Sequence record: NC_054928.1
DNA from: Escherichia phage vB_vPM_PD112
DNA: 64,000 nucleotides
Direction: 5' to 3' (one strand)
Shown here one piece after another: positions 3,709 to 57,753 of this stretch; the first letter of the stretch is position 1; every line of letters starts with the position of its first letter. The position numbers and the translations under genes are program-made. A model generated the notes under the pieces. That model was not told where the DNA came from and ran no database searches. It saw only the letters and a program-made list of their open reading frames with translations.

Positions 3709-4911
3709 TTATTTTGTAATAATGTCAAACTGCTCTTTAAAGCAGAAGCTTGAATCTTGGTGCTGATACAAAAATTCATAAGCTTTTTCGCGTTCACGGT
3801 CATAAAGAGCTCGGTCAGATGACAGTTCTTTAATACGTTCAAATGTTGATTCCATGTCATTTTCATCAAACCAAACGATACCGCTATCGTGCGAAATTAA
3901 TGGAGTATTATCAACACGGAATTTTAAATTTTCGCCAGTAGATTTCCAAAATACTGGAATTGTTCCACATGCACCAAGCTCGAGATGAGTATATTCTAAA
4001 GAACGCTGTAGATATTTTTTATCTAATTTACTCAGCTGATAACCAAATCCGGATTTACTCATGCGTTCAAGCATTTCGCTATTTACATAACGGTCGAGAA
4101 TTTGCGTCGGCAAATTAGGAGCAATTTTAATTTGGTCTACTTGATGAAGACGATAATACTCGTATGGAATTCCTTTTTCTTTAATAGGAATGAAAGCTGG
4201 AGAACGTTCCAGACCTTCCATAATAGTACTTAGTCCTGCAGGTTTAAGATGTTTTTCGTGAAAATCAAACATCTGATAAAAGCCTTTCCATGTAGTAGTA
4301 CGACCAATCCAACGGTTGATATTCATGTTAATTTCAGAAACATCTTTCCAGTAGGTTGATCGAACCTTCGCAATATCCATAGGAGGCTGAAAGTTATATA
4401 CGGTCGGTGCTTCTTCAATATCATCAAACAGAGAAACAGTTTCCGGATACCATTCTTTCATCAAAACTTTATTAAAGTCACCATTATCAGAATGGCTAAA
4501 AATAACATCAGCTCGACGAACAGTTTCTTCTAATCCCAAATTTCGGCGTAAAGAAAGAGAAGAATGGTCATGCTGATAAACTACAACACGAACCGAAGGT
4601 TTAATGTTATCAATAATTTTTTTATAGTTATTAATAGTGTCTTCTTCTACTGAAGTAGCAGGAACTGAATTGATAATTAGAATATCACAATCATTTACCA
4701 ACTTAAGTGTTTTATCGTATTCTTTTGCCAATAAAACCGGAATTGAAAATGACTTATAATCATGCGCGCAATTACGAGTAAATGATTTATCTTTAGCATA
4801 AACCAAAGTTACTTCATGACCATTTTTAATAAACCAATCACGCTGCTCAAGAGAAAATTTAGTTACACCGCAACCTTCAAGACCTCGAGCCATAAAAATA
4901 CATGCTTTCAT
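3709..4911 (-). CDS. agt: DNA alpha-glucosyltransferase (hmC-DNA glucosylation)
   Basis: 400 aa; near-identical to recalled T4 alpha-gt sequence over its length. Confidence 0.9.
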   Translation of the reverse strand: MKACIFMARGLEGCGVTKFSLEQRDWFIKNGHEVTLVYAKDKSFTRNCAHDYKSFSIPVLLAKEYDKTLKLVNDCDILIINSVPATSVEEDTINNYKKIIDNIKPSVRVVVYQHDHSSLSLRRNLGLEETVRRADVIFSHSDNGDFNKVLMKEWYPETVSLFDDIEEAPTVYNFQPPMDIAKVRSTYWKDVSEINMNINRWIGRTTTWKGFYQMFDFHEKHLKPAGLSTIMEGLERSPAFIPIKEKGIPYEYYRLHQVDQIKIAPNLPTQILDRYVNSEMLERMSKSGFGYQLSKLDKKYLQRSLEYTHLELGACGTIPVFWKSTGENLKFRVDNTPLISHDSGIVWFDENDMESTFERIKELSSDRALYDREREKAYEFLYQHQDSSFCFKEQFDIITK

Positions 4912-18400: not shown

Positions 18401-18928
18401 TTATGCGAGTACCGTCTTTAACCGTTCTTCAAACTTCCGAAGAGTATTTTGGCGTTCAGCTCTTTGCTTTTTGTAAGTTTCAATACGCTCTGAAATGAGA
18501 GTGTATCGTTCATTTACTGATTCTTTCATAAAATCAGGAATTTCACGAGAAGCTTTAATCTCATCAAATTTATCAATAACAGCTTGCTCTTCAGCAATTA
18601 AGTTATCATACATTAAAATATCTTTCTTGATGAACTCAATATCTTCTTGAGTTACACGAGATAATTTAGATGCTTTATCCTTTTTGTACTGTTCGTTAGT
18701 ATCACGAGACCAGTGTAATGTACGATTTTTATTCGTATTCTTATAAATTTCTACAATACCAATCTCATCGATAATAACGATCCAATTCCAATGGGATTTG
18801 TAAATTTGTCCTCCATCAACCGTGATTTCACCTCCAATTGAGATGTCATTAAAGAACTTGCTTTGTGCTTCAGATTTAAATTTACCATCGTTATAATTTA
18901 CCAAGTTGAAAATATCTTTAGCGTTCAT
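18401..18928 (-). CDS. hypothetical protein
   Basis: ORF track; ATG start; early promoter immediately upstream. Confidence 0.5.
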   Translation of the reverse strand: MNAKDIFNLVNYNDGKFKSEAQSKFFNDISIGGEITVDGGQIYKSHWNWIVIIDEIGIVEIYKNTNKNRTLHWSRDTNEQYKKDKASKLSRVTQEDIEFIKKDILMYDNLIAEEQAVIDKFDEIKASREIPDFMKESVNERYTLISERIETYKKQRAERQNTLRKFEERLKTVLA

Positions 18929-18956
18929 TTTCTGTTCCTCCGTAGTTGATAGTTGT

Positions 18957-18986
18957 ATAGTACCACAGAGGAACAGTCTTGTAAAC
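18957..18986 (-). promoter_or_regulatory. T4-type early promoter (GTTTACA N17 TGGTACTAT)
   Basis: Member of repeated conserved element TGGTACTATACAACTATCAACTAC. Confidence 0.5.
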
Positions 18987-18988
18987 CA

Positions 18989-19303
18989 CTAAAAGAAACT
19001 TCTTTCACAATTTTTTCCACTAAACCATGCGCTCACTGCTTTCTTAGTCTCAGGAGCAGTGTTATCCATAAACCATTCAAAGGCAGCCTTTTTATGATTC
19101 TGGAGGGCTTCTCGGGCTTTAATCTGCTCACGGTCTATTAACACTAACATATGAGCCTTTCTTGTCACCATGGGCTTCTTATGATTTTTTGAATACTCCC
19201 AGTCATTTGTCCATCGCATTGTCGTTGCGAACTGAAATACAGCTTCTTTAATCTTAGTTTCGTAAATTTCACGAGCCTTTGAGTATAACATCACTACCTC
19301 CAT
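18989..19303 (-). CDS. hypothetical protein
   Basis: ORF track; ATG start. Confidence 0.5.
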   Translation of the reverse strand: MEVVMLYSKAREIYETKIKEAVFQFATTMRWTNDWEYSKNHKKPMVTRKAHMLVLIDREQIKAREALQNHKKAAFEWFMDNTAPETKKAVSAWFSGKNCERSFF

Positions 19304-19393: not shown

Positions 19394-20362
19394 TTATTTC
19401 AGAAGAGTAACCTCAGCAATTTCTTGCCAACCGTTTTTGTCGGTCATAATAAAGTCAGCAAGATAAAGTGCAGTACGCAGTGAAACATTGCGTAAACGGT
19501 TAACATTGACTTTCATCCATGATAATGCTTTATAAGTTTCTTCATCAGAAAGACCGCGCTTTTGCATCATGTCGGTTGAAAGAATAACATCTTCAACCCT
19601 GACCATAATTTCTTCATTAGTGTGAACACCCAAATCCAAATAAACTGAGCGGGATACTAATGCTTGTAAATGTGGAGCAAGTTTAGTACCACGGTCTAAT
19701 TCGCGGTCAATGTCAACGTTTGTGATAAAAACAATCGTTCCTTTAAATTCAAACTCACGCTCAATGCCTTTTTCTTCTAAGTAAGAAGATGCAGTGCTCC
19801 AGCAGACTTTACGGGTCTCTCCAGTGTCCAGAGCGGCTTTTAGAAGATTAAGAATGTCCATATCAGAGAAAACATCCACATCATCAATCAAAAGGACAGA
19901 ATTCTCTTCACGATTATTCCAAAGTTGTTCATAAAGACCGATACCGGAGATTTTACCGTTAATGCTTTTATATTCAATGTATCCATTATCATTTGCTTTA
20001 TTCAAAGCTTTATCTAAAGAATACGTTTTACCAATACCTGCTGCACCAGAGATAATTAATGAACGAATGTTTCCGTTAATAATACCATTCGTCATCATTC
20101 CCATAACATTAAATCTTTTATTAATGCGGGTTTTCATATCTTCATACGATTCTTTAACTTCTTCAACTTTTACACCATCATATGAAATGTCTGATTTGTA
20201 AACCCAAACACCGCGACGTTTACCGTCAATTTCAACAAAAACTTTACCATCTCCTTGTGCATCTACCGGAGCATTATCTGGGAACCATTCACCTAAGAGC
20301 TCAAAAGTTCCAGAGATTTCTTTACCGAAGTAGATACCCTTATTGATAGTTACAGTTTTCAT
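19394..20362 (-). CDS. P-loop ATPase (AAA-like)
   Basis: Walker A GAAGIGKT, Walker B LLIDDVD; ATG at residue 5 with GGAGAA SD; own early promoter. Confidence 0.6.
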   Translation of the reverse strand: MKTVTINKGIYFGKEISGTFELLGEWFPDNAPVDAQGDGKVFVEIDGKRRGVWVYKSDISYDGVKVEEVKESYEDMKTRINKRFNVMGMMTNGIINGNIRSLIISGAAGIGKTYSLDKALNKANDNGYIEYKSINGKISGIGLYEQLWNNREENSVLLIDDVDVFSDMDILNLLKAALDTGETRKVCWSTASSYLEEKGIEREFEFKGTIVFITNVDIDRELDRGTKLAPHLQALVSRSVYLDLGVHTNEEIMVRVEDVILSTDMMQKRGLSDEETYKALSWMKVNVNRLRNVSLRTALYLADFIMTDKNGWQEIAEVTLLK

Positions 20363-20398
20363 TTTATTCTCCAATTTTACATTTGTTTTGATAGGGTA

Positions 20399-20428
20399 AT
20401 AGTATCACACTACTACCCTGCTGTAAAC
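20399..20428 (-). promoter_or_regulatory. T4-type early promoter
   Basis: GTTTACA N17 TGATACTAT on minus strand, upstream of ATPase gene. Confidence 0.5.
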
Positions 20429-20431
20429 AAT

Positions 20432-20695
20432 TTATTTTAATGTTCGCCAAATTTTTACTGCTTCGCGACGAGATACTTCTACAGCTCCAAGTTCTACAGC
20501 TTTTTGGCGTCGCCGAGCGTGTAAGTCATAATGTTTAATGCGTTTATCTTGAAACCAAGAACGTTTCATTCCTATTGCTTCTGCCATTTCGTGAAGCTCT
20601 TCAATATCTCCATCAGTGAACATATGACAATTTTTAGTTGGATGACCGCGAAGTTTCCATCCATGATTCATTAAAACATCTACGTAAACTGTCAT
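20432..20695 (-). CDS. DUF4031-like small protein
   Basis: MTVYVDVL...HMF...ELHEMAEAIG...SWFQ pattern recalled from DUF4031 family. Confidence 0.5.
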   Translation of the reverse strand: MTVYVDVLMNHGWKLRGHPTKNCHMFTDGDIEELHEMAEAIGMKRSWFQDKRIKHYDLHARRRQKAVELGAVEVSRREAVKIWRTLK

Positions 20696-20841
20696 TGATT
20701 CTTCTCCAAATAAGTTTCGATAATTTTCTGAGCGAGATAAACTGCATTATCTTCAGTTGCATCTTCTAAGAAACTTTCAAAACACTCTGAAATTTCTTCT
20801 GTGTCAATCAACTTTTTTACTTCAATTGGTGTAATTTTCAT
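20692..20841 (-). CDS. small hypothetical ORF (49 aa, below track cutoff)
   Basis: Hand translation MKITPIEVKK...; stop overlaps downstream ATG (ATGA); sits just downstream of an early promoter. Confidence 0.4.
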   Translation of the reverse strand: MKITPIEVKKLIDTEEISECFESFLEDATEDNAVYLAQKIIETYLEKNQ

Positions 20842-20878: not shown

Positions 20879-20908
20879 ATAGTACCATAAAGCTTTATGC
20901 TTGTAAAC
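20879..20908 (-). promoter_or_regulatory. T4-type early promoter
   Basis: GTTTACA N17 TGGTACTAT; follows terminator hairpin. Confidence 0.5.
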
Positions 20909-20937
20909 CGTTTTGTGAAAAATTTTTGAAATAAAAA

Positions 20938-20958
20938 AGGGAGCCCGAAGGCTCCCTA
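20938..20958 (-). terminator. rho-independent terminator after nucleotidyltransferase gene
   Basis: GGGAGCC-TTCG-GGCTCCC hairpin followed by T-run on minus strand. Confidence 0.65.
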
Positions 20959-21972
20959 TCATTTATAATAACTTCGGTGGTTTTCAAGATAGACCTTCTC
21001 AAGGAAGTCATCCCAGAAACTCATGTCTACTGTTTTAGGCATACCGTTCTTAGAAGCTTCAGTAGATGCTGCTTCTACTTGATCGACCACATCTTCCAAA
21101 AACTCTTGAACCGTTTTAAATGGATGTTTACCCAACTTCACGTCAAGAATAAATGGAGCGTCTTGAAGTGGATAAACCAAGTCACCAGTTTTGTAAATTT
21201 CCAATAGTTGAAGTCCACCACGACAAGCATGGCTCAGAGCTTTCCAGTCAATACCTTCGTTGGCTTTGGCCTTACGGGCACGTTCACCATATTCAGCATC
21301 TAATTTGTTCAGTGACTGCTTAAGCTCAATAAGAGAAAGCGTTGTCTGATATTTACGACCCAACACAGTGTAGAACATTTGCGGGCCTGTTTTCTCATAA
21401 TTATGGAACACCCATTCACAGAACTCGTTTTCTGGAAGACGATGCTTAATATCTTCAACTTTAGTGCGACGAAGTCTATCAGGGATTCCTTCTTGATAGT
21501 CGACCCACTGGTCAGGGATTTGATTAACTACTTTCAATACATCACGTAATGCGGCCAAACGAGAACCCTTGACACCGTATTTAGAAGCTTGCTTACGGAC
21601 ATATCCTAAATAGGATTTCATGTTAGTCGTATAAAAACGAGAACGGTTGTCTTGAATAAACTTCCACACATCAGGCAAATCAGATTTAACCACTAGCTCA
21701 GGTGGAGTGTGAAGCATATCTAATGCTACAGTTTCACCATCTGCTGCTAATTTAAAGAAATACTTAAGACTGTATAGTTCATGGTCAATATCATCTTTAG
21801 TGTTTTTAGATGATGTGTTGTTAGTGTTTTTACTCATGTGCTCTTTAACGTTTCCAATAAGAATATCACGAGCAGGAGGAACAAAGATTTCTTTAAAATC
21901 TACATCAGATTCTGGAGTAGAAGTTCCATAAAGATGACTACCAAAATAACTTTTCATTACTGTTTTCATCAT
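20959..21972 (-). CDS. Pol-beta superfamily nucleotidyltransferase-fold protein
   Basis: N-terminal GSHLYGTSTPESDVDF (GS...DxD NTase signature); 337 aa with helical C-terminal half; terminator hairpin directly downstream. Confidence 0.55.
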   Translation of the reverse strand: MMKTVMKSYFGSHLYGTSTPESDVDFKEIFVPPARDILIGNVKEHMSKNTNNTSSKNTKDDIDHELYSLKYFFKLAADGETVALDMLHTPPELVVKSDLPDVWKFIQDNRSRFYTTNMKSYLGYVRKQASKYGVKGSRLAALRDVLKVVNQIPDQWVDYQEGIPDRLRRTKVEDIKHRLPENEFCEWVFHNYEKTGPQMFYTVLGRKYQTTLSLIELKQSLNKLDAEYGERARKAKANEGIDWKALSHACRGGLQLLEIYKTGDLVYPLQDAPFILDVKLGKHPFKTVQEFLEDVVDQVEAASTEASKNGMPKTVDMSFWDDFLEKVYLENHRSYYK

Positions 21973-21978
21973 TCAGCC

Positions 21979-22431
21979 TTATATTCCAATAACAGGACAC
22001 ACTTTAGCTTTACGAGCTTTTAAAAATTCAACGATAATCGATTTCTTGGGTTGAATAGGAGGTAAACCTTTATACGCCCTATCAATGTTTTCTACGTGTA
22101 AAGCATAATCCTTTTTCCATTTATAATCTTTATATTTTTCACGCAAATGTGCAGGAATAACAAATGAACCGATAATAAGTAAAACAACAAAAAGCGCAAG
22201 TATAAATGCCGATGGAAGAAGAATCCATAAACTACCGAAAATAAGCCAACGTTGTAGGCTTTCTGCACAAATAATTGTTAGCCCTACGAGTATAGCACAT
22301 CCAAAAATAGAAACGAAAAATGTAGGAATGGCAATAGACCAAAAATATGCGCATAGTGTCTTAGGTCGTTGCCATTCATCGTTAAACAATTTGAATAATT
22401 TATAGTGCCAAGAGTTTTCATTAATAATCAT
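21979..22431 (-). CDS. integral membrane protein (2-3 TM helices)
   Basis: Long hydrophobic stretches; ATG start. Confidence 0.55.
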   Translation of the reverse strand: MIINENSWHYKLFKLFNDEWQRPKTLCAYFWSIAIPTFFVSIFGCAILVGLTIICAESLQRWLIFGSLWILLPSAFILALFVVLLIIGSFVIPAHLREKYKDYKWKKDYALHVENIDRAYKGLPPIQPKKSIIVEFLKARKAKVCPVIGI

Positions 22432-28605: not shown

Positions 28606-29067
28606 TCATTGAGTTTTAATTACTGCTTTAGAAGCCTTTCCTGGTAAACGACGACTGTTGATAATTGCCATCCTACATTGAAGTGACGGGTCTTTGAACT
28701 TCGCGTTAGGTTTACAAACTGTAAATCCAAGCCAAAGATTTCCATCTGTGATTTCTAAACGTCCAGGACGATATTCAACCCCATCAATAAAATCCTCGTC
28801 AATGTCAGGACGCGGAGGCATACTCAGGAATTCATTAACTTCTAAAACATGGTCTTTTATTTTGTGGAATAATTCAAAAACATATGTCTCATCAATCTCC
28901 CGTTGAATTGCACGGTCAAGAAGATGCTGAGAATATTTTAGATGAAACGATGAGACCCCTGCTGCTTTTGATGCCTCACGAATCTCATTGTTAATTTGAC
29001 GAAACTCCGACTCAAAGTGACGACGGAGCTTATTTCGACGGATAAAAACTTCTGTATTGATAGTCAT
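28606..29067 (-). CDS. regB: site-specific RNA endonuclease RegB
   Basis: 153 aa as in T4; early promoter with TGGTATAAT upstream. Confidence 0.8.
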   Translation of the reverse strand: MTINTEVFIRRNKLRRHFESEFRQINNEIREASKAAGVSSFHLKYSQHLLDRAIQREIDETYVFELFHKIKDHVLEVNEFLSMPPRPDIDEDFIDGVEYRPGRLEITDGNLWLGFTVCKPNAKFKDPSLQCRMAIINSRRLPGKASKAVIKTQ

Positions 29068-29094
29068 GTTATTCTCCTCTTAACTGATAGAAAA

Positions 29095-29124
29095 ATTATA
29101 CCACAGTCAAGAGGAAAAGTAAAC
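29095..29124 (-). promoter_or_regulatory. T4-type early promoter upstream of regB
   Basis: GTTTAC N17 TGGTATAAT. Confidence 0.55.
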
Positions 29125-55289: not shown

Positions 55290-57094
55290 TGAAACAAAAT
55301 ATTAATATCGGTAATGTTGTTGATGATGGTACCGGTGACTACCTGCGTAAAGGTGGTATAAAAATAAATGAAAACTTTGATGAACTTTATTATGAACTTG
55401 GTGATGGAGATGTTCCATATTCAGCCGGTGCCTGGAAAACTTATGATGCTTCATCTGGACAAACACTAACGGCAGAATGGGGAAAATCATATGCCATTAA
55501 TACTTCGTCTGGAAGAGTAACTCTACAACTTCCTAAAGGAACTGTTAATGATTACAACAAGGTAATTAGAGCTAGAGACGTATTCGCTACATGGAACATC
55601 AATCCAGTTACTTTAGTAGCTGCTTCCGGAGATACAATTAAAGGGTCGTCATCGTCAGTTGAAATTAATATTCAATTTAGTGATTTAGAGCTCGTTTATT
55701 GCGCTCCAGGACGTTGGGAATATGTCAAAAACAAACAAATTGACAAAATTGTTAGTTCAGATATTAGTAATGTAGCTCGCAAAGAATTTTTAGTTGAAGT
55801 TCAAGGACAAACTGACTTTTTAGATGTTTTCAATGGAACTAGTTATAATGTCAATAACATCAGAGTAAAACATCGTGGTAACGAATTGTATTACGGTGAT
55901 GTATTTAGCGAAAATAGTGACTTTGGCTCTCCGGGCGAAAATGAAGGCGAATTAGTTCCTCTTGATGGATTTAATATTCGATTAAGACAGCCTTGTAATA
56001 TTGGTGACACCGTTCAAATTGAAACATTTATGGATGGTGTATCACAATGGAGAAGTTCATATACAAGACGCCAAATAAAAGTACTAGATTCAAAACTAAC
56101 ATCAAAGACTTCTTTAGAAGGAAGCATTTATGTTACTGATTTATCGGCGATGAAATCAATTCCATTTTCTGCATTTGGATTAATTCCTGGTGAACCCATT
56201 AATCCTAATTCTCTTGAGGTTCGTTTTAATGGAATTTTACAGCAGCAGGCTGGAACCGCTGGATATCCTCTGTTTTTGTGTGAAGGCGCTAGTTCAGATA
56301 CGCGAGAAGGTTGTATATCTCTTGGTGGTGAATGGAAAGAATCAAACACAGATTATTCTATAGAATATGAAGATGGAAAACCTACCAGTCTTTTATTTGA
56401 TAGAAAATTTGAATCAGGTGATATAATCGTTATAACGTGGTTCAATAATGATTTAGGAACTCTTTTAGAAAAAGATGACATTATTGAATTAACGGATGAC
56501 CGTTATGTTAGCAAAGGATCATCTACCGAAGTTACTGGTGATGTAGCCTTAACAGATTTTGATAAAATCGGTTGGCCAAATGTTGAAAAAGTTGATTCTT
56601 ATACTAGAATGTATAATTCAATATCATCTATTTTCGACAGCATTTATCCTGTTGGTTCAATTTATGAAAATGCTATAAATCCAAATAATCCGGTGACTTA
56701 TATGGGATTTGGTTCATGGAAATTATTTGGTAAAGGACAAGTTTTAGTAGGATGGAATGATGATGTTACGGATCCAAACTTTGCTTTAAACAATAATGAT
56801 TTAGATTCTAGCGGAAATCCTTCACATACTGCCGGTGGAACAGTTGGAACAACATCGGTGACACTTGAGAACGCAAATCTTCCTGCGACTAAAACTGATG
56901 AAAAAGTTTTAATTGAAGATGAAAACGGATCAGTTATTATTGGAGGTTGTCAATATGACCCAGACGAAACTGGTCCTATATATACAAAATATCGTGAAGA
57001 CTACGCAACAACAAACTCTTCACATACTCCTCCTACTAATATTAGTAATATTCAACCGTCTATTACTGTATACCGTTGGATAAGGATTGCATAA
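55289..57094 (+). CDS. 10: baseplate wedge subunit/tail pin gp10
   Basis: 601 aa (T4 602). Confidence 0.85.
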
Positions 57095-57753
57095 TGAGTT
57101 TACTTAATAATAAAGCGGGAGTTATTTCCCGCTTAGCAGATTTTCTTGGTTTTAGAACTAAGAAAAATGATATTTCGGTTATGAATAATCAGCCAGTAGG
57201 CGCTGTAACAATTTCACAAATAGCAAAGGGTTTTTATGACCCAAATGTAGAATCTGCTATCAATGATGTTAGAAATATGGCAGAGCAACAAGTTGGAGCT
57301 GTATTAGTTAATATAAGCGGCGTATCTCCTACTGGCGTGCAGCAAACAGACTATTGGTCATTTGAAGGAACTGTTACTGATACTTCAGCTAAACCCGGAG
57401 ACCCAGTTATTGTTAACATGTTTGGCATTCCTGTTAAAGCTACCAACGGAATGACTTCAATCGAATTTACCAGTGCCGTTAGAACAGCTCTACAGGAAAT
57501 GGTTGCAAAATTTATTGCAATTGATTCATTTGAAGACCATCCTACCATAGGAAATAAAATACAAGTTAAGTATTTAGATAACCAAGAACATATCTTAGAA
57601 CAATACTCTGATAAAGGAATTACTTTCAAACAGGAAATAATTTCTCCTTCTAAACCTGGATACGGAACTTGGCAATTATTAGGTGCGCAAACTGTCACGC
57701 TAGATAGTCACACACAACCTACGGTATTTTATTATTTTGAGAGAATAGCATGA
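57094..57753 (+). CDS. 11: baseplate wedge subunit/tail pin gp11
   Basis: ATG at residue 7 of track ORF gives 219 aa as in T4; AAGGA SD. Confidence 0.85.

Follow-up and report, generated by a model that had tools for sequence, protein, structure and literature searches.

A gene for a P-loop ATPase, a gene for a small protein of the DUF4031 family and an open reading frame (ORF) of 49 codons lie next to each other in the genome of Escherichia phage vB_vPM_PD112 (sequence record NC_054928.1). The stretch analysed, referred to below as the window, is 64,000 nucleotides long, and all the genes across 18.4–22 kb of it are on the minus strand. The first-pass annotation, made from the sequence alone, had described the three genes as one block; the question that this locus raises is whether they belong together, and what they are. 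The explanation that best covers the whole, and which is very probably right, is that the block makes up the part from nrdC.11 to nrdC.9 of the non-essential, hyperplastic early region of a T-even phage, in which the ATPase is the orthologue of phage T4 nrdC.10, and the small ORF and the DUF4031 gene are an accessory cassette flanked by promoters. The block is ordinary: an orphan AAA+ gene of the T4 family, next to a promoter-bounded accessory cassette of a known type. The coordinates of the features are given in Table 1.

Identity of the ATPase gene

The ATPase gene is about 98% identical in nucleotide sequence to T4 nrdC.10 (NP_049708) and has the same neighbours, nrdC.9 and nrdC.11; because of this identity and these flanking genes, it is a named, uncharacterised T4 ORF. 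Its product matches PHROG 1250 with an E-value of 8e-167. The earlier statement that no characterised T4 function can be recognised in the block is right as far as function is concerned, but the gene itself is recognisable. Its product is none of the known factors of replication or packaging. Both motifs reported before are present on the minus strand: Walker A (GAAGIGKT) is encoded by nucleotides 20024–20047 and forms residues 106–113, while Walker B (LLIDDVD, with the acidic residues D160 and D161) is encoded by nucleotides 19874–19894. The window can be assigned to Tequatrovirus; its best match is vB_EcoM_CE1, with 99.1% identity over 17 kb, and the region is about 98–99% identical to many Tequatrovirus genomes.

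The list of ORFs does begin the ATPase gene at an upstream TTG codon (20372–20374), as had been remarked, but this codon is downstream of the −10 hexamer of promoter P2 (20399), so the extended frame does not run through the promoter. It is located 12 nucleotides upstream of the ATG at 20362 and overlaps the Shine-Dalgarno sequence. Judging from the alignment, the ATG at 20362 is the real start and the TTG at 20374 is spurious, because the amino-termini of the homologues align at the ATG and T4 and other records annotate it.

A two-gene insertion upstream of nrdC.10

In T4, the terminator hairpin of nrdC.11 and promoter P1 are followed directly by the ribosome-binding site of nrdC.10, and the alignment to T4 identifies the P1 sequence as the promoter directly driving nrdC.10 there. 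In the window, about 480 extra nucleotides are present between the common promoter and the common ribosome-binding site, as a clean insertion made up of the 49-codon ORF, the overlapping DUF4031 gene and a second promoter, P2. The overlap of the two genes is as first described: the plus-strand tetranucleotide tcat at 20692–20695 contains both the TGA stop codon of the small ORF and the ATG of the DUF4031 gene (ATGA).

The contiguous arrangement of cassette and nrdC.10 is found in 116 of 545 matching phage records, and in 161 the match extends over 80% or more of the cassette. T4 and the majority of T4-like records possess nrdC.10 but lack the cassette. In Karamvirus Ent31 the pair of small ORF and DUF4031 gene adjoins nrdC.10. 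In the Jiaodavirus phages Mineola and KMI13, the pair, again with a four-nucleotide overlap, lies about 2 kb and seven genes from nrdC.10; the Mineola pair is bracketed by a terminator and TTTACA-N17-TAAGAT upstream and by TTTACT-N17-TAAGAT downstream. These arrangements show that the small ORF and the DUF4031 gene move together between T4-like genera, whether or not nrdC.10 is beside them.

This distribution bears on whether the ATPase, the DUF4031 protein and the small protein might be one functional system, for example a counter-defence or DNA-processing module. The three genes are adjacent in the window, on the same strand, of early type and with no terminator between them, and the adjacency recurs in Ent31. 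However, besides the absence of the cassette from most T4-like records and its separation from nrdC.10 in Jiaodavirus, no AAA+ family is among the recurrent Pfam matches of the immediate neighbours of DUF4031 at about 70 other viral loci, and no DUF4031 gene neighbours the homologues of NrdC.10 found in contigs such as those of Vibrio and Acinetobacter. Because the cassette and nrdC.10 are distributed independently, they do not form a three-gene functional unit; a single system is very improbable, and the description of the block as one unit does not hold.

Early-promoter repeats are present on both sides of the cassette. PeSL (promoter-early stem-loop) elements have been proposed as the means by which accessory ORFs are inserted, deleted and exchanged within the hyperplastic regions of T4-like genomes (PMC2839356, PMC4122927). 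The upstream element in the window (20879–20957) has the composition by which a PeSL is defined, a hairpin, then TTTACA-N17-TACTAT, then the start of an accessory ORF, the stem-loop part being the terminator hairpin of nrdC.11. Gain and loss of the cassette would come about through PeSL-mediated modular shuffling, in which one copy of the promoter element recombines with another.

A separate observation was made in Mineola (3930–3990, minus strand), where the gene after the cassette, a different gene encoding 262 residues, starts with the 18-nucleotide ribosome-binding and start context of nrdC.10, GGAGAATAAAATGAAAAC. As this context belongs there to a different gene, it suggests that the promoter, ribosome-binding site and start may themselves be a module that is part of what gets shuffled.

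Predicted early promoters and hairpins

The two promoters proposed earlier, one for the ATPase gene (P2) and one for the pair of small ORF and DUF4031 gene (P1), are both supported as predicted early-type promoters. They share the hexamers, the TGn motif and a run of 13 nucleotides downstream of the −10 hexamer, CTATCAAAACAAA. The T4/PST early-promoter consensus, TTTACW-N17-TAYWAT (PMC4122927), has 14 matches in the window (between 7741 and 40466), all on the minus, coding strand, where 0.46 would be expected; none of 100 shuffled sequences reached 14, so that the promoters as a class are well above chance. The 14 sites have common flanks, TTTTCACAAA upstream and ACAACTATCAA downstream, which fit the UP/−35/TGn/−10 architecture described for T4 early promoters (PMC2988021). 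Most of them carry extended flanks, TTTTCACAAA..GTTTAC upstream and TACTATacaactatcaa downstream, so that the window holds a family of scattered promoter repeats, each of about 60–70 nucleotides, which could act as recombination substrates.

The terminator hairpin after nrdC.11 has the sequence AGGGAGCCTTCGGGCTCCCT + TTTTTATTTC; T4 has the identical element, and the annotation of phage D5505 calls it a terminator. It is the sole terminator-like site found in the block and is located upstream of P1. The hairpin over P2 has a folding free energy of −17.8 kcal/mol (z = −3.6), is not followed by a U-run and leaves the Shine-Dalgarno sequence of nrdC.10 uncovered.

Table 1. Position of the genes and predicted regulatory elements in the window
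Feature	Coordinates	Strand	Description
NrdC.10 ATPase gene	19394–20362	−	322 residues; PHROG 1250; orthologue of T4 nrdC.10
DUF4031 gene	20432–20695	−	87 residues; PF13223; PHROG 4887
49-codon ORF	20692–20841	−	strongly acidic 49-residue protein, net charge −7; PHROG 6888
nrdC.9	18989–19303	−	DUF7203; downstream neighbour of the ATPase gene
nrdC.11	20959–21972	−	RlaP-family nucleotidyltransferase; upstream neighbour in the T4 order
Predicted early promoter P1	20879–20907	−	TTTACA-N17-TACTAT, TGn, A/T-rich upstream region
Predicted early promoter P2	20399–20427	−	TTTACA-N17-TACTAT, TGn; immediately upstream of nrdC.10
Intrinsic terminator hairpin	20938–20957	−	GC-rich stem of 8 bp with a T-run behind it; follows nrdC.11 directly
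Hairpin over P2	20393–20419	−	12 bp, GGGUAGUAGUGU..ACUAUUACCC; covers the spacer, the −10 hexamer and +1
Shine-Dalgarno sequence of nrdC.10	20369–20372	−	GGAG, 6 nucleotides before the ATG at 20362

Elsewhere in the window, two other early promoters are located inside hairpins: that of nrdC.8 (18925–18985, minus strand; 15 bp, −25.5 kcal/mol, z = −5.6) and that of a gene at about 29.06 kb (29050–29123, minus strand; −22.9 kcal/mol, z = −3.65). In both, the strand that pairs with the promoter spacer is the Shine-Dalgarno region of the gene that follows. The Shine-Dalgarno sequence would be masked in read-through transcripts and free in transcripts that start at the embedded promoter. A design with the Shine-Dalgarno sequence masked in read-through transcripts is known from T4 genes e, 49 and soc; the two hairpins resemble it, but are located at early promoters.

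Upstream of nrdC.11, the window and T4 also differ. The gene immediately upstream in T4 is mobD, encoding an HNH homing endonuclease (T4 56429–57208), where the window has an ORF for a hydrophobic protein of 150 residues (21979–22431, minus strand). This appears to be a further insertion, deletion or replacement within the same hyperplastic region.

The NrdC.10 ATPase

The AlphaFold2 model of NrdC.10 has a predicted local distance difference test (pLDDT) score of 88.8. In the model, an amino-terminal beta domain (residues 1–62, approximately) is followed by a linker helix (residues 73–96), an AAA+ core (residues 100–243, approximately) and a helical lid (residues 249–319). The amino-terminal domain probably selects the substrate. 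Both Walker motifs are invariant in 32 homologues, as is the sensor-1 residue N215, which is located after the strand formed by residues 209–214. R238 is invariant within an ALVSRS motif, in the arginine-finger position, and R291 and R296 are invariant just before the last helices of the lid; the three arginines are, in the sequence alignment, at the positions expected for an arginine finger and sensor 2. Between helix alpha-3 and the sensor-1 strand, an insertion of about 25–30 residues is present (residues 179–208).

A Foldseek search with the model gave 136 matches in the PDB at an E-value of 1e-3 or better, with a probability of 1.0 to many AAA+ structures. The top-listed ones are AAA+ proteins, namely Rad24/RAD17-RFC, Hda, RuvB, dynein, sigma-54 activators and ORC, about equal to each other and with template modelling (TM) scores of 0.3–0.45. 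In sequence-based searches, no Pfam AAA family (AAA_16, AAA_22, AAA_14, AAA or AAA_5) reached its cut-off, the best score being 22.4 bits versus the 27–33 bits needed. AAA_16, AAA_22 and AAA_14 were matched below threshold in 22–30 of the 32 homologues, and in 30 of the 32 sub-threshold matches are the only ones. Sequence and profile searches of the PDB gave marginal P-loop matches to Cdc6 and HerA only. The affinity to IstB/DnaC or KAP put forward earlier was not found, as neither is listed at an E-value of 0.1 or better, nor is either among the matches of the 32 homologues. A marginal or weak AAA motif has been described for nrdC.10 (PMC1524935).

Some of these matches would fit a replication or repair accessory of the clamp-loader, RarA or Hda type, which loads or unloads a ring or a helicase on DNA, instead of a role in counter-defence. 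Rad24-RFC, RAD17-RFC and Hda are among the top Foldseek matches, there are weak matches to PHROG clamp loaders (E-value 1.4e-4), and the invariant ALVSRS is located where clamp loaders have their SRC arginine-finger motif (RFC box VII). One source labels a homologue RarA, and the name that another gives begins with "putative processivity clamp". The similarity is nevertheless generic to AAA+ proteins, with RuvB, dynein and sigma-54 activators scoring equally; the insertion before the sensor-1 strand is unlike minimal clamp loaders, the Pfam cut-offs are not reached, and T4 encodes a clamp loader and a helicase loader of its own. Such a role for NrdC.10 is therefore rather unlikely.

More than 1,000 homologues of NrdC.10 were found, in phages of Escherichia, Serratia, Yersinia, Acinetobacter and Aeromonas and in Vibrio and other contigs, with 54–99% identity among the 120 matches listed. 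NrdC.10 is best regarded as an orphan, stand-alone AAA+ family, present across T4-like and some other large phages. An obligate linkage of nrdC.10 to the RlaP-family gene nrdC.11 was considered and rejected: the two are adjacent or near each other in T4-like phages and in Acinetobacter phage ZZ1, but not in Vibrio or ERZ1524538 contigs.

Two annotation problems were noticed in this family. The T4 reference records (NC_000866, AF158101 and U76612) contain one extra G (ACGGGTT versus ACGGTT) near the end of nrdC.10, corresponding to 19394–19430 of the window. A 68-nucleotide probe of this site is matched in full in those three records only; T4T (HM137666), MT984581, OZ209023 and the remaining listed records of T4 match over 67 nucleotides, and the alignment with T4T confirms that the G is absent. 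Because the extra G is confined to the three records, the annotated carboxy-terminus of the 325-residue T4 protein (...IATGYSSEINS) is probably a sequencing error. The ending conserved throughout the family is ...IAEVTLLK, which gives 322 residues, as in the window. Secondly, nrdC.10 and homologues of other genes numbered after nrdC are labelled "thioredoxin" in many GenBank records, including that of CE1. The label appears to have spread from the gene-name prefix nrdC; no likeness to thioredoxin is found in the proteins concerned, nrdC.10 encoding an AAA+ ATPase and nrdC.11 an RlaP nucleotidyltransferase.

The 49-residue acidic protein

An ORF of 49 codons in the 5'-untranslated region of another gene might be a translated leader or a chance ORF. 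It is short, its Shine-Dalgarno sequence is weak (GGA), and a word-indexed database search gave seven homologues. However, between the window and the divergent Karamvirus-type copies (L021 and L004) there are nine synonymous and two non-synonymous differences, a ratio of non-synonymous to synonymous substitution rates (dN/dS) of about 0.04. The Jiaodavirus homologues are 45–47% identical, with an invariant EDN..LAQ.IIETY.E motif, and are found in the same overlap arrangement; the protein has a PHROG family of its own (Table 1), and each of the nine T4-like IMG/VR loci examined has the ORF upstream of DUF4031 with the four-nucleotide overlap. The substitution pattern refutes the non-coding explanation, which is extremely improbable, and the ORF, judged in this way, is a real gene under strong purifying selection.

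The 49-residue protein is very acidic and the DUF4031 protein basic. Outside the T4-like phages, no conserved small acidic ORF is present upstream of DUF4031, and the upstream gene differs in nearly every locus; the acidic partner is therefore specific to the T4-like lineage.

The DUF4031 protein

The assignment to DUF4031 was confirmed by a match to PF13223 with an E-value of 8.2e-22 and a score of 77.7 bits, against a gathering cut-off of 25.6 bits. The gene has its own GGAG, 8 nucleotides before the ATG and within the small ORF. In an alignment of 38 homologues, residues D6, H24, L34, A38, Q49, H55, Y56, D57 and G70 are invariant, and D28, H35, R45, W47, F48 and R63 nearly so. The dN/dS ratio between the window and the Karamvirus-type copies is 0.04–0.11.

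The AlphaFold2 model is confident (pLDDT 92.9), and a Foldseek search with it gave no PDB or BFVD match at an E-value of 1e-3 or better. The best fold neighbours in the PDB are LAGLIDADG endonucleases and SUI1-like folds, all non-significant, with E-values above 0.5 (0.56 for the best); in BFVD the highest places go to an unnamed entry and a further DUF4031 protein, with an E-value of 0.011. Sequence and profile searches of the PDB gave nothing usable. An exhaustive profile search found 7,376 clusters at 50% identity, almost all of stand-alone proteins of 85–130 residues. Among the ten of the longest proteins inspected from the 150 matches listed, no informative fusion was found, one having a sub-threshold match to HNH_3. 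A literature search on DUF4031 returned a mention as a table entry only.

A survey of the immediate neighbours at about 70 viral loci outside the T4-like phages gave no fixed partner for DUF4031; the neighbours are scattered genes of DNA metabolism, with DUF5131 counted four times and each of thymidylate kinase, HNH, terminase and portal twice. Further genes found near DUF4031 in diverse phages encode DNA methylases, 5-hmdU kinase, RecT/ERF and helicases, in modules of DNA metabolism or modification. On the strength of its invariant polar residues and this genomic company, the protein may be taken, as a weak working assignment, to be a small enzyme with nucleic acid or nucleotides as its substrate.

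In addition, DUF4031 occurs in actinobacterial prophage-like regions (in a contig of Mycobacterium sp.), near DUF5131 and a protein with an ADP-ribosyltransferase toxin domain. In metagenomic phages it is located between a C5 DNA methylase and DUF3310, endonuclease VII and ThyX. These neighbours would support a link to DNA or nucleotide metabolism, and to no single pathway.

The cassette could also be a selfish mobile element, with DUF4031 as a small nuclease that helps its gene to pass from one co-infecting T-even genome to another, in the manner of the free-standing seg and mob homing endonuclease genes, and the acidic protein as its inhibitor or immunity factor. Close relatives differ in whether they have the cassette at this one intergenic site, and the region is the one where T4 has mobD; Asp and His residues are invariant in DUF4031, its nearest PDB folds are LAGLIDADG homing endonucleases (TM about 0.35), and the ORF of its acidic partner overlaps the gene of the basic protein. 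But the fold matches are non-significant, and 87 residues are too few for a DNA-recognition domain. DUF4031 is moreover a very large family with a broad and stable distribution, nearly always a stand-alone gene within the DNA-metabolism modules that unrelated phages and prophages carry; conservation of the acidic partner ends with the T4-like phages, and the mobility of the cassette is already explained by the promoter repeats. We consider a selfish element quite unlikely.

Proposed transcription and possible function

Within the explanation preferred here, a promoter-flanked accessory cassette beside the nrdC.10 orthologue, host sigma-70 RNA polymerase would transcribe the block from P1 and P2 immediately after infection. 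P1 would give a bicistronic messenger of the small ORF and DUF4031 that, as there is no intervening terminator, would continue into nrdC.10, while P2 would provide an independent start for nrdC.10. With such a start of its own, nrdC.10 would not be silenced when the cassette is gained or lost. DUF4031 would be translated by coupling through the ATGA overlap or from its own GGAG.

All three genes would belong to the accessory class of host-takeover or counter-defence genes. This assignment is based on the non-essential character of the surrounding nrdC block and on the counter-defence precedent of nrdC.5. Blocks nrdC.1–6 and nrdC.11–mobD.3 of T4 can be deleted (PMC9825161), and nrdC.5 acts against the Dsr1 defence system (PMC9391042). 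In T4, many early transcripts come from regions that are non-essential in laboratory hosts, and many early genes without a known function are likely to be of use in certain strains only (PMC2988021). By this analogy an accessory role in host takeover or counter-defence is most likely, any specific activity being of low confidence. NrdC.10 would act as an ATP-driven oligomeric remodeller or loader, with its target chosen by the amino-terminal domain; DUF4031 would be a small metal-dependent or acid-base-dependent enzyme on nucleic acid or nucleotides, and the acidic protein its partner or regulator. This functional assignment of the three genes is the weakest step of the explanation.

Several points weigh against the explanation as a whole. 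P2 lacks the separate upstream terminator stem-loop of a full PeSL, and has a hairpin overlapping the promoter instead. The sequence between promoter and ribosome-binding site in the T4 5'-untranslated region, AACTGATACGGA, differs from a simple recombinant of P1 and P2, so the history is more complex than a single excision. Literature searches found no transcript 5'-end data for P1 or P2 and no report on the dispensability of nrdC.10 itself; a search for a T4 start-site data set likewise found none. The signals for a subclade of AAA+ are mixed, an SRC-like SRS motif being combined with the insertion before sensor 1. Finally, nothing that points to a function of DUF4031 or the small ORF came from PADLOC, from sequence and fold searches of the PDB, from fusions or from neighbourhoods: PADLOC had no matches for six proteins of the region, and NCBIfam gave noise only.

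A more specific idea is that the 49-residue protein and DUF4031 are an unrecognised two-component phage effector, and that NrdC.10 is an AAA+ protein that dismantles a host defence or replication complex. DUF4031 might then be a small enzyme with a new fold, acting on DNA, RNA or nucleotides and checked or targeted by its acidic partner, and the cassette might be a promoter-bounded counter-defence cassette exchanged among T-even phages. It is kept in view because the confident DUF4031 model is without a structural relative and Asp, His, Tyr and Gln residues are invariant; taken together, its parts make a speculative proposal that is rather doubtful.

The ATPase, the small ORF and DUF4031 carry little weight as discoveries: they are already present in many GenBank genomes, and over 100 phage genomes list them as hypothetical or DUF4031 proteins. 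The promoter-bounded insertion or deletion is one more case of a published shuffling mechanism. Novelty remains only in the biochemistry of three uncharacterised families. The value of the analysis is that the ATPase is correctly named as NrdC.10 and set apart from the cassette, and that a natural comparison of genomes with and without the cassette becomes available for PeSL-mediated exchange. The NrdC.10 AAA+ family, DUF4031 (about 7,400 clusters at 50% identity) and its small acidic partner are candidates for host-range and counter-defence screens.

Comparison with known systems

Compared with the nrdC.10 locus of T4, that of the window has the orthologous gene, the same ribosome-binding site and the same upstream promoter and terminator, but with a two-gene cassette and a second promoter in between. 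Like PeSL cassettes (Arbiol 2010; Comeau 2014), it has a stem-loop, a promoter, a Shine-Dalgarno sequence and an ATG before accessory ORFs, and it is an insertion or deletion among close relatives, bounded by two promoter repeats in a hyperplastic region. Unlike them, its downstream repeat, P2, has no separate stem-loop upstream, and corresponds to what the PeSL authors call a "half" PeSL; in the accessible text of PMC4122927, the cassette is not named and the term nrdC is absent. With nrdC.5 (PMC9391042), the three genes share the early non-essential block and a patchy distribution among relatives; there is no sequence relationship of nrdC.5 to NrdC.10, DUF4031 or the small protein, and a role in defence is proposed here by analogy.

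When NrdC.10 is compared with generic AAA+ proteins (RFC, Hda, RuvB, sigma-54 activators and ORC/Cdc6), the alpha-beta-alpha core and lid, the Walker A and B motifs, the sensor-1 asparagine and the arginine positions are alike. It differs from them in a sequence identity of only 11–18%, an amino-terminal beta domain of its own, a Walker B motif with DD rather than DE and the absence of other domains. The DUF4031 protein matches the Pfam family over its full length, with all the invariant family residues present, but unlike DUF4031 elsewhere, the T4-like copies are preceded by a lineage-specific, overlapping ORF for an acidic protein of 49–54 residues.

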